Source: a virus. Taken from it: a stretch of DNA of 64,000 nt. This document shows positions 1,449 through 31,614 of this stretch, piece after piece. The notes beneath the pieces were generated by a model. That model made no database searches. It was not told where the DNA came from and was given only the letters and a program-made list of their open reading frames with translations. The stretch is from positions 1-64,000 of IMG/VR virus record IMGVR_UViG_3300001533_002564; one strand, given 5' to 3'. Made by a program: the position numbers and the translations under genes. Within the stretch, counting starts at the first letter, position 1. The number at the start of each line of letters is the position of its first letter.

Positions 1449-1469
1449 CCAACATGTCAAAGAACTATA
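1449..1469 (-). promoter_or_regulatory. boxA-like antitermination element
   Basis: TATAGTTCTTTGACATGTTGG, identical 21-mer at 26817-26837; resembles rRNA-operon boxA. Confidence 0.65.
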
Positions 1470-1481
1470 ATAATTATTCAT

Positions 1482-1514
1482 AAAAAAACCCGAAACTTTT
1501 TAGGTTTCGGGTTT
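1482..1514 (-). terminator. Attenuator terminator 1
   Basis: AAACCCGAAAC / GTTTCGGGTTT stem plus U-tract. Confidence 0.85.
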
Positions 1515-1537
1515 GTGTTTTTATTGTGGTATTTTAT

Positions 1538-1666
1538 TTATATTCTAATATCCATTAAACCTTCACCCGAATCCATATTTCTGCCAAAATTTGAACAGAA
1601 TATACCATTCCCGTTACGACTAATAGTCGTTGTCGAAATAATAATATTTGTAATTCGTGTTTTCAT
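1538..1666 (-). CDS. Leader peptide 1, MKTRITNIIISTTTISRNGNGIFCSNFGRNMDSGEGLMDIRI (42 aa)
   Basis: Hand-translated; lies between promoter and terminator; contains TTCGGGT (1565-1571), complementary to the terminator 5' arm. Confidence 0.75.
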   Translation of the reverse strand: MKTRITNIIISTTTISRNGNGIFCSNFGRNMDSGEGLMDIRI

Positions 1667-1710
1667 TTTTATATGTTTATTAATTTAATTGTAAATATCT
1701 TTTATCTAAA

Positions 1711-1737
1711 TACGAGACAAAGATATAAAATGTTACA
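1711..1737 (-). promoter_or_regulatory. Composite promoter: TGTAAC-N17-CGTA with nested Bacteroidota -7 TATCTTTG
   Basis: Near-identical copy at 27079-27105. Confidence 0.65.
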
Positions 1738-1755
1738 ATATAAACAAATTATTTT

Positions 1756-11845: not shown

Positions 11846-12535
11846 TTATTTAATCCATTTTCTAATAGCATTATCACTAACACCATATTTACGACCTGTT
11901 TCTGAATATCCTAATACATTAATTTCATTTAATAATTGTTCTTGTGGTGGTCTTTGAACTTTTCTTTGTTCCATATTATGACATTTCATACATAATTTAG
12001 AATTTCTTTTTATTTTTACACCACATATAGAACAATAATTCTTTGGTGTATATTTTTTAAATTTGAATGGTCTTTTGAATTTCTTTGCGTTTCGACCACA
12101 GTGTGTCGAAAGTGTTGCATTACAATTTGGACATAAAATTCTCAAATTTATTAAACGATGATCATTATTTATACCATTAATATGGTCAAGAATTAAACTC
12201 ATTTTTTCACCATACCACATTTCATCTTGTCCACATTTTTCACATATACGTTCTTTTAATCCTTCATCAAACAAACGTTTTTTTAATGAAGTTCGACTAT
12301 ATGTTGAACCAGAAACTAAAATTTCTTCAATAGGTATTTTTAATTGATTTAAATTTTGTGTTTGATTTTTTCTATTAAAATGCGAAATATCAATATTATA
12401 TATTCTTAAGTATCGATTTAATGTGTCATAATTTCCAGTAAATGATTTCAGTCCTAAACATATTAATGTTTCTGATTTATTTGTAGATTTATTAACGCAG
12501 TTTATTAAATTTTCTTCATCCCATCGATTTTTCAT
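11846..12535 (-). CDS. HNH homing endonuclease
   Basis: CEKCG...LDHINGINND...LRILCPNCNA plus C-terminal HTH GRKYGVSDNAIRKW. Confidence 0.88.
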   Translation of the reverse strand: MKNRWDEENLINCVNKSTNKSETLICLGLKSFTGNYDTLNRYLRIYNIDISHFNRKNQTQNLNQLKIPIEEILVSGSTYSRTSLKKRLFDEGLKERICEKCGQDEMWYGEKMSLILDHINGINNDHRLINLRILCPNCNATLSTHCGRNAKKFKRPFKFKKYTPKNYCSICGVKIKRNSKLCMKCHNMEQRKVQRPPQEQLLNEINVLGYSETGRKYGVSDNAIRKWIK

Positions 12536-12599
12536 AATTTTAAATTTAATATAAATACTCGAACTATGAAAATATTTATATTAAATTTAAAATTTGTTG

Positions 12600-12687
12600 T
12601 CGGAGCAAGGGGTTCGAACCCCCAATGTTTACCCTATGGGAACTGATTTATGGTCAGTCACAACATCACCATCATTGCCGTCTTCCC
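12600..12687 (-). pseudogene. Degenerate/chimeric tRNA-Tyr-like gene
   Basis: Tyr-type body with variable arm; anticodon loop CCATAAA instead of CTGTAAA; acceptor strands mismatched. Confidence 0.55.
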
Positions 12688-12701
12688 ATTATATTTATTA
12701 G

Positions 12702-12796
12702 TGAGATAAAGAGGATTTGAACCTTGTCTTAGTTAGACTTCATCTAACCCTATGTGCACAAATAGGACGGTTTCACCACAACCGAAAAGTTATCTC
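12702..12796 (-). ncRNA. tRNA-like element with 8-nt anticodon loop
   Basis: GAGATAA/TTATCTC acceptor, CGGTT/AACCG, CCTAT-TTGTGCAC-ATAGG, GTTAGA/TCTAAC arm, TTCAAAT loop. Confidence 0.5.
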
Positions 12797-12801
12797 ATTA
12801 G

Positions 12802-12880
12802 TGGGGATGGTAGGACTCGAACCTACATGCCGAAGCGGGACTTTTACAGAGTCTTGGGTATTCCAGCACCCAACATCCCC
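12802..12880 (-). tRNA. tRNA-Tyr(GTA)
   Basis: GGGGATG/CATCCCC-A acceptor, CTGTAAA loop, variable arm. Confidence 0.88.
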
Positions 12881-12951
12881 CAATTGAATTTTTTTACATG
12901 AATACCTTTCCTCAGTTCATCGAAAAATTCTAAAACGTTCTACCCTGTTTG

Positions 12952-13024
12952 TGCGCCCGAAGGGACTTGAACCCTTAACTCCCGATTTAAAGGACCGGTA
13001 CTCTACCAATTGAGTTACGAACGC
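12952..13024 (-). tRNA. tRNA-Lys(TTT), C33 variant
   Basis: Cloverleaf, loop CCTTTAA. Confidence 0.82.
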
Positions 13025-13029
13025 AATTG

Positions 13030-13102
13030 TGACCCCTGTGAGGCTCGAACTCACGACCCATGCCTTAAAAGGGCATTGCTCTACCAACTGAGCTAAGAGG
13101 TC
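13030..13102 (-). tRNA. tRNA-Lys(TTT)
   Basis: Canonical, ATGCC-CTTTTAA-GGCAT. Confidence 0.93.
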
Positions 13103-13121
13103 AATTTCACATTGGATGTTA

Positions 13122-13206
13122 TTCATTATACGGGACTCGAACCCGTGCGCAAGGATTAAGGATAGCATGTGCGTTTCCTTTGCTCTACCAACTGAGCTAC
13201 TAATGC
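13122..13206 (-). pseudogene. tRNA-like gene with expanded anticodon loop (possibly Lys-CTT-derived)
   Basis: Canonical D and T arms; AAGGA-(20 nt ending CCTTAA)-TCCTT. Confidence 0.5.
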
Positions 13207-13409
13207 AACCAATGTGTCTACTCACATAATTACTAATATTGATTACTTATTTAATTTACTAATATATTTCTAATTATCTTGCCTGTCAGCACCTTCCACT
13301 GCTCAAGTTTTTTTATCTCACGATTGCGATTGTTACATACCATCTTTTCACACATTTTACTTTAAGATTTTCATCTTCTCTTTCATATCACTTTCAATTT
13401 TATATTAAT

Positions 13410-13443
13410 AAAAAAACCCGACTCTTTCGAATCGGGTTTTTTT
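13410..13443 (-). terminator. Attenuator terminator 2
   Basis: AAACCCGATTC-GAAA-GAGTCGGGTTT plus U-tract. Confidence 0.85.
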
Positions 13444-13461
13444 ATTATAAAGTCATTACTT

Positions 13462-13554
13462 TTATATCATAACTTTAGACATAATTATCCCGATTCGTAT
13501 AAGATACTTCTTATAAGATTTTTTACAGTAATAATATTTTCTAAAAGTTGTCAT
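13462..13554 (-). CDS. Leader peptide 2, MTTFRKYYYCKKSYKKYLIRIGIIMSKVMI (30 aa)
   Basis: K/Y run; CGAATCGGG (13489-13497) complementary to the terminator 5' arm. Confidence 0.8.
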   Translation of the reverse strand: MTTFRKYYYCKKSYKKYLIRIGIIMSKVMI

Positions 13555-13597
13555 TTCTAATTATTTTAAATTTGATTTTACAAAACTATAACATAAA

Positions 13598-13623
13598 TAC
13601 GTAAAAAACAAGAAAATGTTACA
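13598..13623 (-). promoter_or_regulatory. TGTAAC-N16-CGTA promoter motif
   Basis: One of six copies in the window. Confidence 0.6.
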
Positions 13624-13686
13624 AAAATTTAAAATTATTTTTTATTTAATACATAAACTTACTATTCTTTAGATATTTTTTCATAA

Positions 13687-14769
13687 TTACACATCATCAT
13701 AACCATTACTAAATGGTTTACTATATTTTGGTCTAATCATTTTCCAAATAATATCTGCATATGGTCTTTTATCATATAATTTAAATAAAATTGCACGATA
13801 ATTTGATTGTTTTGCTTGTTCAGCAAACTCAGTACGGTTACTTATGTCATTAATATGATAAATTCTTACAAATTCCAATAATGATTGTCTTTCAGTTTCA
13901 TTATATTGATTTTGTAGTTTATTTATTGTTCTTTTTAACCAATCATAAAATTCATCAGGAACTCTATCAAATAACCCATCAAAATCATAATTATTTTTCA
14001 AATGTTCCCAAACAATTACATTAGAAACATTTGTTAATATACCATGCAATCTAACATATTCATTAAACTTAACTTTAACTCTAAATCCATTAAAAAATCT
14101 AATTACAAAACCTTCTTTATTTTCTTCTTCAAGTGCTTTAAGTTCAGTTAAATTTTCAATATTCTTAATTTTATGTCTTTTTACAATGGTAAATAATTTT
14201 GAATATTGTGCAACCATATCGTCATAATATTGTTCAAAACCTGTTTCCGTATTAATTACTGATAATAAAATTAAGTCATACATATCACCATAATCAACAA
14301 CAATCCTGTTTTCAGGATAAATTATTTCAAATAAATAAGTATTATTTTCGTCAAATTTATCATAAGTATTTACATTAAGCATCTTTTTTGCTTCGATTGC
14401 TTGTTCTGAAATAAATGAACCTCTTGATGCAATAATCCAAACCATACGTGGTTTATAGTAGAATAATATAATTAAAGAACCATCCATTTTTTCAAAAATA
14501 TCATAATCTTGTGATAAATCAATTTCTGTTGAATCATGTTCTTCAATATTCTTGAATTTCTGGAATGGACGAGCTAATATATTACCATCAATATCAACAA
14601 CCATTCCACGACAAGACATAGTATATTCATCCCAAAACTTCTTTGATTGTGCTTTAGGACTATAATTAAGTATCCACATATCGTATTCTAGATGTTTATT
14701 TGCTATAATTAAATTATTATCAATATAATGATTTAATTTTTCCCAATTTAATTTTTTTAACATTTTCAT
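13687..14769 (-). CDS. T4 Rnl1-like RNA ligase
   Basis: CRGMV, PFQKFKN, EKMDGS (motif I), ASRGSF, EGFVI, VKVK. Confidence 0.88.
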   Translation of the reverse strand: MKMLKKLNWEKLNHYIDNNLIIANKHLEYDMWILNYSPKAQSKKFWDEYTMSCRGMVVDIDGNILARPFQKFKNIEEHDSTEIDLSQDYDIFEKMDGSLIILFYYKPRMVWIIASRGSFISEQAIEAKKMLNVNTYDKFDENNTYLFEIIYPENRIVVDYGDMYDLILLSVINTETGFEQYYDDMVAQYSKLFTIVKRHKIKNIENLTELKALEEENKEGFVIRFFNGFRVKVKFNEYVRLHGILTNVSNVIVWEHLKNNYDFDGLFDRVPDEFYDWLKRTINKLQNQYNETERQSLLEFVRIYHINDISNRTEFAEQAKQSNYRAILFKLYDKRPYADIIWKMIRPKYSKPFSNGYDDV

Positions 14770-20919: not shown

Positions 20920-20921
20920 AG

Positions 20922-21285
20922 TGGAGTTGACGGGATTTGAACCCGTGTCCGCATGGTTGATTAATTAATTTTCTACAAGTTTAGGATAAAATTTTCTAAT
21001 TTTCCAAAAATAGTATGATTTAATTCTTAGTTTTTATTCTGGATTCATTACTTTTCTCATACAAACTCATTTCACCAGAAAGTTTTTGTTGATTTTTTTA
21101 CGACTTCCTATGCTGCAAATGCAAGTTCAACATTCTTTGCAAATACACTTTCTCCTCTCGTAAGAGAAGTCGGAATAGACATTATGTCTTCTGCGTTTAT
21201 TGTTTTGTACTTTTTTTAAGTAAATATTACAACTACTACTTGCTTATTAATCTCTCTACACCATCGTCAAAACCAAGACAACCCC
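20922..21285 (-). ncRNA. ssrA: tmRNA
   Basis: GGGGTTG/CAACTCC-A acceptor with G3.U70, GGTTTTGAC, T arm, tag ORF 21194-21108 AEDIMSIPTSLTRGESVFAKNVELAFAA*. Confidence 0.92.
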
Positions 21286-26816: not shown

Positions 26817-26837
26817 CCAACATGTCAAAGAACTATA
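26817..26837 (-). promoter_or_regulatory. boxA-like antitermination element
   Basis: Identical to 1449-1469. Confidence 0.65.
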
Positions 26838-26849
26838 CACACTAAAATC

Positions 26850-26882
26850 AAAAAACCCGACTCTTTTTAGTTAGTCGGGCTT
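26850..26882 (-). terminator. Attenuator terminator 3
   Basis: AAGCCCGACT / AGTCGGGTTT plus U-tract. Confidence 0.85.
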
Positions 26883-26913
26883 CTTTTTAAGAAAGGAGTG
26901 TGTAATATTATTA

Positions 26914-27000
26914 TTACCCGACTGAACATAATCTATCCTCATCTGCTGCCCATAAGACTGCATCCAGAACTACCATTAATATGTCGAGTAAATTTTTCAT
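26914..27000 (-). CDS. Leader peptide 3, MKNLLDILMVVLDAVLWAADEDRLCSVG (28 aa)
   Basis: L/D/M/V/A/W/E run; AGTCGGGT (26916-26923) complementary to the terminator 5' arm. Confidence 0.8.
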   Translation of the reverse strand: MKNLLDILMVVLDAVLWAADEDRLCSVG

Positions 27001-27078
27001 TTGTCTTGTTATTTTTTTATTAATACTATTTTTTCATCAATTTGTTTTTAAATAAACTTATTGTCTTGAGTTCATAAA

Positions 27079-27105
27079 TACGTAGCAAAGATATAAAATG
27101 TTACA
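27079..27105 (-). promoter_or_regulatory. Composite promoter: TGTAAC-N17-CGTA with nested TATCTTTG
   Basis: Near-identical to 1711-1737. Confidence 0.65.
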
Positions 27106-27198
27106 ATAATACCAAACTTTTTTTGATTTATTTTTTAATTATTTTCTATCGACAGCCAAAAGTACTTGATAATAAGGAGATTTGGCTAATAATAGATA

Positions 27199-31477: not shown

Positions 31478-31508
31478 AAAAAAACCCCACTCTTTTCAGA
31501 ATGGGGTT
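31478..31508 (-). terminator. Attenuator terminator 4
   Basis: AACCCCATTC-TGAAAA-GAGTGGGGTT plus U-tract. Confidence 0.85.
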
Positions 31509-31539
31509 CGTGTTTAACCCAAAACTTCTTCTCGAAAAA

Positions 31540-31614
31540 TTAAGTGTAGCTTCCCCATTCACCATCCTGTGGATGTTGTTGCGGTTGGGGTTGTATGTTC
31601 ACTAAATTTTTCAT
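31540..31614 (-). CDS. Leader peptide 4, MKNLVNIQPQPQQHPQDGEWGSYT (24 aa)
   Basis: QPQPQQHPQ run; GAATGGGG (31553-31560) complementary to the terminator 5' arm. Confidence 0.82.
   Translation of the reverse strand: MKNLVNIQPQPQQHPQDGEWGSYT

Follow-up and report, generated by a model that had tools for sequence, protein, structure and literature searches.

The stretch of viral DNA analysed here, referred to as the window, comprises positions 1-64,000 of the 104-kb contig IMGVR_UViG_3300001533_002564. It is AT-rich (~27% G+C) and contains more than 21 transfer RNA (tRNA) genes and one transfer-messenger RNA (tmRNA) gene, nearly all on the minus strand. Between a gene for an Rnl1-type RNA ligase and a block of tRNA-Lys and tRNA-Tyr genes lies a short unit, with all its features on the minus strand, that consists of a promoter-like motif, a 30-codon open reading frame (ORF) rich in Lys and Tyr (K/Y), a putative antiterminator within this ORF and an intrinsic terminator. 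The initial annotation proposed that this K/Y unit is an attenuator that senses Lys and Tyr and controls the adjoining tRNA genes, and the sequence details that it gave were confirmed. Comparison with 30 homologous units and three paralogous cassettes strongly supports this proposal at the sequence level. We consider it likely that the K/Y unit is a ribosome-mediated leader-peptide attenuator, and that the output of tRNA-Lys and tRNA-Tyr goes up when Lys or Tyr codons are read slowly.

The leader ORF (30 codons and a stop) occupies 13554..13462 on the minus strand, and its codons 6-17, KYYYCKKSYKKY (13504..13539, minus strand), form the putative sensor run, in which 10 of 12 residues are Lys or Tyr. 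As described in the initial annotation, this run uses both AAA/AAG and TAT/TAC, and the count is five Lys and five Tyr codons (AAA three times, AAG twice, TAT four times and TAC once). The run is not random. Among 94,568 stop-free segments of 12 residues in the six frames of the 104-kb contig, it ranks first in K/Y content and is the only one with 10 Lys/Tyr residues, and four segments have nine. At the K+Y frequency of the contig's proteins (0.147), ten or more Lys/Tyr in 12 residues have a binomial probability of 2.4e-7. The leader ORF lacks a Shine-Dalgarno (SD) sequence. An SD sequence is present for just 2 of the contig's 68 long ORFs, whose starts are preceded by 20 nt with 88% A+T. Since SD-less starts are normal in this contig, the missing SD sequence is no objection to translation of the leader, and we predict with moderate confidence that the leader ORF is translated.

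The K/Y leader is conserved. It has 30 distinct homologues, each of which keeps 6-10 Lys/Tyr in 12 residues together with a terminator and the competing pairing, and indels between homologues in the sensor part are in frame. The ratio of nonsynonymous to synonymous variation (pN/pS) among the homologues is 0.70 for codons 1-22 in the leader frame, and 1.34 and 1.07 in the other frames. One aligned position is Lys (AAA or AAG) in 17 sequences and Tyr (TAT) in 11 sequences, and nothing else. A divergent homologue (L009/L325) has another K/Y-rich peptide and another terminator, together with a matching 9-bp antiterminator that includes one G.U pair. Judged from this divergent homologue and the position that alternates between Lys and Tyr, it is the composition of the K/Y leader that is conserved and not its sequence. 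The section of the leader after the antiterminator varies in length and frame (26-31 residues, with frame changes in several homologues). Such free variation 3' of the antiterminator fits a sensor and not a functional peptide. Directly 3' of the leader stop, a motif, AAGTAATGACTTTAT (13446-13461, minus strand), is conserved in a K/Y subgroup despite the variable spacer around it.

The intrinsic terminator (13410..13436, minus strand) has an 8-bp G+C-rich stem with one U.G pair, a GAAA loop and a U7 tract. Its 5' arm, CCCGATTC, is at 13436..13429, its 3' arm, GAGTCGGG, at 13424..13417, and the seven U at 13416..13410. A consensus terminator scan missed this hairpin, and both folding and a separate hairpin scan recovered it. 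The leader region folds better than 200 of 200 dinucleotide shuffles (z = -5.6), mainly owing to the terminator, and in 29 homologues 93.5% of the alignment cells of the terminator stem are paired.

The putative antiterminator, CGAATCGGG (13489..13497, minus strand), covers codons 20-22 and makes nine perfect pairs with 13436..13428, at a distance of 52 nt from the 5' arm. A 9-nt perfect complement to the 5' arm was present in 0.05% of shuffled upstream sequences (p = 0.0005), and a complement of this type had p < 0.05 against shuffles in 31 of 33 related units. The octamer GAATCGGG within the antiterminator is invariant in 29 K/Y sequences and pairs with the 5' arm in 27-29 of them; the ninth pair (C-G) is present in four K/Y sequences, that of the window included. 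At the sixth pair of the terminator stem, 22 of the 29 sequences have a U.G wobble and 7 have no pair, and the same U forms a Watson-Crick pair with the antiterminator in all 29. The estimated energies are -16.3 kcal/mol for the antiterminator duplex and -12.5 kcal/mol for the core terminator hairpin. Throughout the family, the predicted better partner of the 5' arm is consistently the antiterminator rather than the 3' arm. The earlier observation that the antiterminator pairs perfectly over 9 bp and that the terminator contains a G.U pair was therefore correct, and the preference for the antiterminator holds across 29 homologues.

In the minimum free energy (MFE) structure of a transcript cut just before the 3' arm, the antiterminator is paired to the 5' arm, which suggests that a free antiterminator captures the 5' arm ahead of the terminator. 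Two homologues read the antiterminator in a different frame, and this points to an element that works at the RNA level. Covariation of antiterminator and terminator is partial: it was found in L009/L325 and, in the sister families described below, in L073, L066 and L089. The RNAalifold consensus contains a further hairpin, P1, that pairs UCUUAUAAG with CUUAUACGA (13495..13518, minus strand) and may serve as a pause or anti-antiterminator stem. P1 is formed between codons 13-15 and 18-20 and overlaps the antiterminator by the first 2-3 nt only. In 29 sequences, 94.8% of its cells are paired, and two sequences have a compensatory change from G-C to A-U (AAG to AAA together with CTT to TTT, the latter at the cost of a change from Leu to Phe). 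The fold of the window also shows a longer outer helix that joins codons 7-10 to the antiterminator; this helix is not conserved and was dropped from the model.

Ahead of the leader stands a promoter-like motif, TTGTAACATTT-N12-CGTATTTA (13594..13624, minus strand), with the core TGTAAC-N16-CGTA, which is invariant in 12 of 12 aligned K/Y units. The same motif stands before the sister leaders at 27106 and 1738, and a pattern search with it gave 77 viral and 120 metagenome stretches. A possible second promoter, TTG-N20-TAnnTTTG (13581..13612, minus strand), overlaps the first. Its TTG and its octamer are nearly invariant in the K/Y alignment, and it may correspond to the sigma-A consensus of Bacteroidota. 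Promoters of the class TGTAAC-N16/17-CGTA are found at 13581-13624, 27106, 22350 and 1738 (minus strand) and precede three of the four leaders of the window; presumably they are similar to promoters of extracytoplasmic function (ECF) sigma factors. A separate short motif, GTATTTAT, stands ahead of many protein genes on both strands. A consensus promoter scan gave 50 hits against 42 expected and was hence uninformative.

The search for related units gave evidence that links the leader to its tRNA genes. With the ligase protein as the query, 14 related viral loci were found, most of which have Lys and Tyr tRNA genes 1-3 kb downstream. The locus L002 has the same promoter, ORF, terminator and order of tRNA genes, and its ORF is one codon shorter, in frame. 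Further units were collected from viral and metagenome contigs by exact-pattern scans with the hairpin and the promoter motif. After removal of duplicates there were 130 promoter sites; a short ORF and then a terminator followed at 85 of them, which yielded 80 distinct leader peptides that fall into four families. The Lys/Tyr-rich family (30 distinct leaders) is followed by tRNA genes for Lys (28 units) and Tyr (22 units). Three odd ARAGORN calls after K/Y leaders coincide with a tRNA-like element, and otherwise the tRNAs are almost only Lys and Tyr. The family rich in Asp, Glu, Val, Leu, Ala and Trp (19 distinct leaders) is followed by tRNAs for just these six amino acids. After the family rich in Thr, Ile, Ser, Asn, Cys, Phe, Gly and Arg (28 distinct leaders) come tRNAs for Thr, Cys, Ile, Ser, Asn, Phe, Gly, Met and Arg, and after the family rich in Gln, Pro and His (three distinct leaders) come tRNAs for Pro, His and Gln. 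Where at least 700 nt of downstream sequence was available, a tRNA gene lay within 700 nt in 61 of 62 units, at a median distance of ~45 nt. In 13 of 29 K/Y units the first tRNA gene begins 7-43 nt past the hairpin. This gap is too short for a second promoter, so that in these units transcription of the tRNA genes can plausibly start only at the leader promoter.

Three sister cassettes are present in the window, all on the minus strand. The Asp/Glu/Val/Leu/Ala/Trp cassette (~27106..26850) stands before Asp, Glu, Val, Leu, Ala and Trp genes, the Thr/Ile/Ser/Asn/Cys cassette (~1738..1484) before Cys, Ile-like, Ser and Asn genes, and the Gln/Pro/His cassette (~31613..31480) before genes for Pro, a His-like element, Pro, Gln and Gln. 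When the residues of the four leaders were tabulated against the isotypes of the four blocks, only the diagonal of the 4 x 4 table was enriched and no off-diagonal cell was. On the diagonal, P is 7e-5 for the K/Y unit (10 of 18 residues) and 2.5e-3, 6.6e-6 and 5.9e-7 for the other three. The link between leader family and tRNA set is exclusive. In the Gln/Pro/His cassette the antiterminator GAATGGGG is perfect for the 5' arm and the 3' arm GAGTGGGG gives a wobble. The K/Y and Gln/Pro/His cassettes have the appearance of a duplicated pair in which the sensor codons were rewritten. The classical geometry is seen in the Asp/Glu cassette, whose antiterminator is overlapped by the stop codon. Two sister cassettes have a boxA-like word, GTTCTTTGA, after their terminators (26821-26834 and 1453-1466, minus strand). 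It also occurs after the terminators of some K/Y relatives (L020) and is absent after the K/Y terminator of the window.

Our data are consistent with the following mechanism. Transcription would start at the conserved promoter motif and the short leader would be translated at once. When charged tRNA-Lys and tRNA-Tyr are ample, the ribosome would cross the Lys/Tyr codons and the antiterminator, the terminator would form, and most transcripts would end at 13416..13410. When either tRNA is scarce, the ribosome would stall with its A site at about codons 6-14, which would open P1 and uncover the antiterminator. The free antiterminator could then capture the emerging 5' arm, and RNA polymerase would continue into the tRNA genes. 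The products of the operon would relieve the stall, giving negative feedback on the tRNA supply. The phage would thus probably make tRNA-Lys and tRNA-Tyr only when its ribosomes are short of them. In the OFF state, either the terminating ribosome might act as a wedge between the antiterminator and the 5' arm, or P1 might re-form behind the ribosome.

Several observations weigh against this mechanism. The leader stop begins 24 nt past the antiterminator (12-40 nt in the K/Y family), so a terminating ribosome would leave the antiterminator uncovered, unlike in the trp model, and the OFF state must have a different cause. A ribosome stalled at the last three K/Y codons (15-17) would lie over the antiterminator. 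When the full leader was folded at equilibrium, also with a ribosome footprint masked, the terminator was always the MFE structure. This is because of the A/U extension of the terminator; thermodynamics alone is insufficient for a kinetic choice, and a terminator fold at full length is expected for a kinetic switch. The antiterminator forms without a ribosome in the truncated transcript, so that the state of an untranslated RNA is ambiguous. The sensor region is strongly conserved at all three codon positions, and pN/pS lies below 1 by a moderate margin only. The loci all belong to a single phage clade, and the 80 leaders represent four orthologous cassette families and not 80 independent events. 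The 20-nt hairpin, wobble included, is matched in more than 120 bacterial genomes of many phyla (Pseudoalteromonas, Colwellia, Deefgea, Algoriphagus and Bacteroidales among them) and is therefore a common terminator sequence. In the window, the ~210-nt spacer between the terminator and the first tRNA-like gene contains a conserved small ORF and could also hold an internal promoter.

Some of these points would also fit a switch that reports general translation capacity, in which any lag of the leading ribosome, caused by ribosome shortage, host shut-off or antibiotics, leads to read-through. The antiterminator forms spontaneously on the nascent transcript with no ribosome modelled, so late translation could switch the unit on, and the position of the stop codon departs from the classical model. 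The nearest published case, a tRNA array of Anabaena, responds to general translational stress (PMC8421152). A general sensor, however, needs no codons that mirror the downstream tRNAs, whereas each of the four leader families matches its own block only, and K/Y richness is retained in the homologue that is otherwise diverged in sequence. We therefore regard a general-capacity switch as unlikely.

It is much less probable still that the hairpin is an ordinary terminator with constitutive leakage, and that the small ORF and the 9-mer are non-regulatory products of AT-rich sequence and shared ancestry. A G+C content of 27% makes Lys and Tyr codons common, the hairpin is generic, and the homologues are all of one clade. 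However, the extreme rank of the K/Y run and the shuffle test of the 9-mer are not accounted for in this way. Nor are the dedicated conserved promoter between the ligase gene and the ORF, and the recurrence of the design in three paralogous cassettes with different sequences and in the divergent homologue. A comparably low probability applies to the idea that the leader RNA is the target of a protein or RNA factor (a phage antiterminator, a factor of the Nus/boxA type or T-box-like tRNA binding) and that the ORF is incidental. This would suit the high nucleotide conservation at all codon positions, the compensatory change in P1 that entails an amino-acid change, the conserved motif after the stop codon in a subgroup and the boxA-like words after the terminators of sister cassettes. 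Rfam, however, shows neither a T-box nor any other family at E <= 1, except for matches below threshold that are driven by the terminator, and the peptide composition that tracks tRNA identity in four families would be left unexplained. Finally, the 30-residue basic, Tyr-rich peptide is hardly likely to be a functional product such as an RNA-binding micropeptide since, although the ORF and especially its N-terminal half are conserved, its C-terminal third is unconserved in length and frame and the sister leaders are wholly different in composition and follow their own tRNA sets.

Attenuation by leader peptides is well known from genes for the synthesis or charging of amino acids, and the enterobacterial attenuators include trpL, hisL, pheL, leuL, thrL and the ilv leaders (Rfam RF00506 and relatives). 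The K/Y unit resembles them in having a short ORF, a run of sensed codons and a terminator 5' arm with an alternative upstream partner, with the position of the ribosome as the presumed chooser, and it resembles the thr and ilv leaders in that two amino acids would be sensed at once. It differs in that a phage element would regulate tRNA genes and not biosynthetic enzymes, so that the sensed molecule and the product are of the same class, and in that the antiterminator is part of the ORF and precedes the stop by 24 nt, instead of being placed at or after it. The Rfam model Thr_leader (RF00506) scored 30.4 bits against a gathering threshold of 55, on the terminator only, and no other leader family was found at E <= 1. 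In Escherichia coli, a leader with Phe codons precedes pheST, the genes for phenylalanyl-tRNA synthetase. As in pheST, leader attenuation would act on a part of the translation machinery that serves the sensed amino acid; unlike the K/Y unit, pheST is bacterial and chromosomal, concerns one amino acid and encodes a synthetase rather than a tRNA. T-box riboswitches likewise make a choice between terminator and antiterminator that depends on the state of one particular tRNA and governs genes of the translation machinery, but they bind uncharged tRNA directly, without a ribosome or an ORF. The T-box covariance model had no match at E <= 1 in 12450-13700.

The trn operon of Anabaena sp. PCC 7120, a long array of supernumerary tRNA genes with low basal expression, is switched on under translational stress and shares its regulation with the ligase gene rtcB, and homing endonuclease genes lie nearby (PMC8421152). 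It is controlled at the promoter by the repressor TrcR, which acts on direct repeats (PMC10272220), and neither of these papers mentions attenuation, a leader or a terminator. Similarly, genes for the Rnl1-type ligase and HNH proteins flank the phage tRNA blocks, but the Anabaena array answers general stress by promoter-level control, unlike the tRNA-specific sensing proposed for the phage cassette. Phages that use tRNAs for counter-defence transcribe them from strong promoters, and no sensing step has been reported for them (PMC11555353, PMC10264068), which also differs from the proposal for the K/Y block. In open-access papers and preprints we found no account of leader-peptide attenuation of tRNA genes, phage or bacterial. 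The mechanism proposed for the K/Y unit is classical attenuation; its target, tRNA genes, and its viral setting are new.

If this reading is true, the phage gauges decoding codon by codon and tops up exactly the tRNAs that are short. This would bear on the question, about fifty years old, of why phages carry tRNA genes, and would make it testable, since the leader sequence would name the tRNAs whose shortage the phage anticipates. Of the four cassettes, the Lys/Tyr unit is the simplest, with two amino acids and two tRNA species. Its tRNAs are also those for which phage copies have been shown to overcome host defences (PMC11555353), and this makes it a natural first test case. Such cassettes could also be of use as small natural reporters that respond to the supply of individual tRNAs.

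The tRNA block downstream of the K/Y unit was described in the initial annotation as two tRNA-Lys genes, one tRNA-Tyr gene and an unassigned tRNA-like element, and this was confirmed. All members are on the minus strand. The first gene after the terminator is the tRNA-like element (13122..13206; Rfam tRNA, 39.3 bits), which has normal acceptor, D and T arms and a 20-nt loop in place of the 7-nt anticodon loop. ARAGORN made no call for it, also when introns were allowed. L002 and L020 also have this element, with covariation in a stem, and its possible roles include a decoy, a processed precursor or another function. Two tRNA-Lys(UUU) genes follow, at 13029..13102 (ARAGORN; Rfam, 69.5 bits) and 12951..13024 (ARAGORN; Rfam, 62.1 bits). 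The second, with the anticodon loop c-c-ttt-a-a, has C at position 33, which is near-universally U. It has been proposed that phage tRNAs become insensitive to anticodon nucleases through changes in this loop (PMC10264068). The tRNA-Tyr(GUA) gene is at 12801..12880 (ARAGORN; Rfam, 40.7 bits). The degenerate Lys/Tyr-like copies of the initial annotation stand in part. The sequence at 12599..12687, a Tyr-like remnant or variant, aligns end to end with the second tRNA-Tyr of L002; it has four extra bases (ACCA) in the anticodon loop and no call by ARAGORN or Rfam. The one at 12701..12796 appears tRNA-like by eye only, with a 7-bp acceptor stem, a T arm, a long variable arm and an apparent 8-nt anticodon loop. 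The spacer between the terminator and the tRNA-like element is found in one K/Y subgroup only, and in the other subgroups the tRNA genes directly follow the terminator. Its ORF of 34 codons (13251-13355, minus strand) has no Pfam match and its open frame is conserved in L002, L015 and L020.

The gene upstream of the K/Y unit (13687-14769, minus strand) encodes an RNA ligase of the Rnl1 type, as had been suggested, with a match to Pfam PF09511 (RNA_lig_T4_1) of 74.4 bits against a cut-off of 28.3 (E = 1.5e-20). It ends 62 nt ahead of the promoter motif. Relatives of the ligase in the same neighbourhood are 64-73% identical, and the best relatives in isolated phages, annotated as RNA ligase, are ~35% identical. 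In most of the 14 related loci, a K/Y unit or Lys/Tyr tRNA genes are found downstream of the ligase gene. The ligase gene of the relatives has a separate terminator, and inserted genes of up to ~3.9 kb stand between it and the unit. Because gene order is conserved across the whole region, the adjacency of the ligase gene is weak evidence for a functional tie. A Pnkp partner was not found in the 104-kb contig, which is probably incomplete, in a tblastn search with the Pnkp-like protein of L014. At L014:3591-4436 (plus strand), beside the most distant ligase relative (42%), the start of this Pnkp-like gene is overlapped by the ligase gene, and the two make up a tRNA repair pair of the T4 type. 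The protein has an N-terminal P-loop kinase and a C-terminal phosphatase motif of the DxDGT type.

The initial annotation further connected the ligase with the anticodon nuclease PrrC. PrrC targets tRNA-Lys and phage tRNA-Lys restores infection, and phage tRNA-Tyr neutralises retron-Eco7, with a rescue that depends on promoter strength (PMC11555353). The ligase of T4 repairs tRNA-Lys cut by PrrC (PMC10264068). The K/Y block consists of exactly the two tRNAs with a proven counter-defence role, and this and the tRNA-Lys with C33 are suggestive coincidences. It is possible, though rather doubtful, that the unit is a counter-defence sensor in which depletion of tRNA-Lys or tRNA-Tyr by a nuclease causes the stall and calls up replacement tRNAs, while the Rnl1-type ligase repairs the cut ones. 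The C33 tRNA-Lys and the large-loop elements might then resist the nuclease or soak it up. The ligase family and its neighbourhood agree with the earlier suggestion, but the functional link is circumstantial, given the synteny, the separate terminator in relatives and the failure to find Pnkp in the contig. If the counter-defence reading were true, the phage would sense an immune attack via translation and answer in kind.

The relatives of the contig are viral contigs from environmental metagenomes and reach 200-350 kb, so that the 104-kb contig is probably incomplete. Among the sequencing runs listed for the stretch, only DNA metagenomes from aquatic and freshwater-sediment samples contain it, and no RNA run does. 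A blastn search with 2.3 kb against isolated phages gave fragments of tRNA and ligase genes only, and no cultured relative. A new lineage of large aquatic phages with Bacteroidota hosts has been described in a paper that does not mention leaders or attenuation (PMC12619734). SD-less starts, TTG-N20-TAnnTTTG in the K/Y promoters and the aquatic sources hint at a host among the Bacteroidota, and we infer this host for the phage from these hints only. Host inference from the terminator hairpin was rejected, as its sequence is generic; for the same reason the hairpin does not mark a special role of the G.U pair. The identical 20-nt hairpin with the wobble also stands directly 3' of the apparent 5S ribosomal RNA end in L016, L017, L021, L022 and L024 of IMG/VR. 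The tmRNA gene of the window is phage-encoded, lies at 20921-21285 (minus strand) inside the tRNA region that runs from Asp to Met and specifies a tag of 28 residues; related tmRNA genes are present in L009, L011 and L012.

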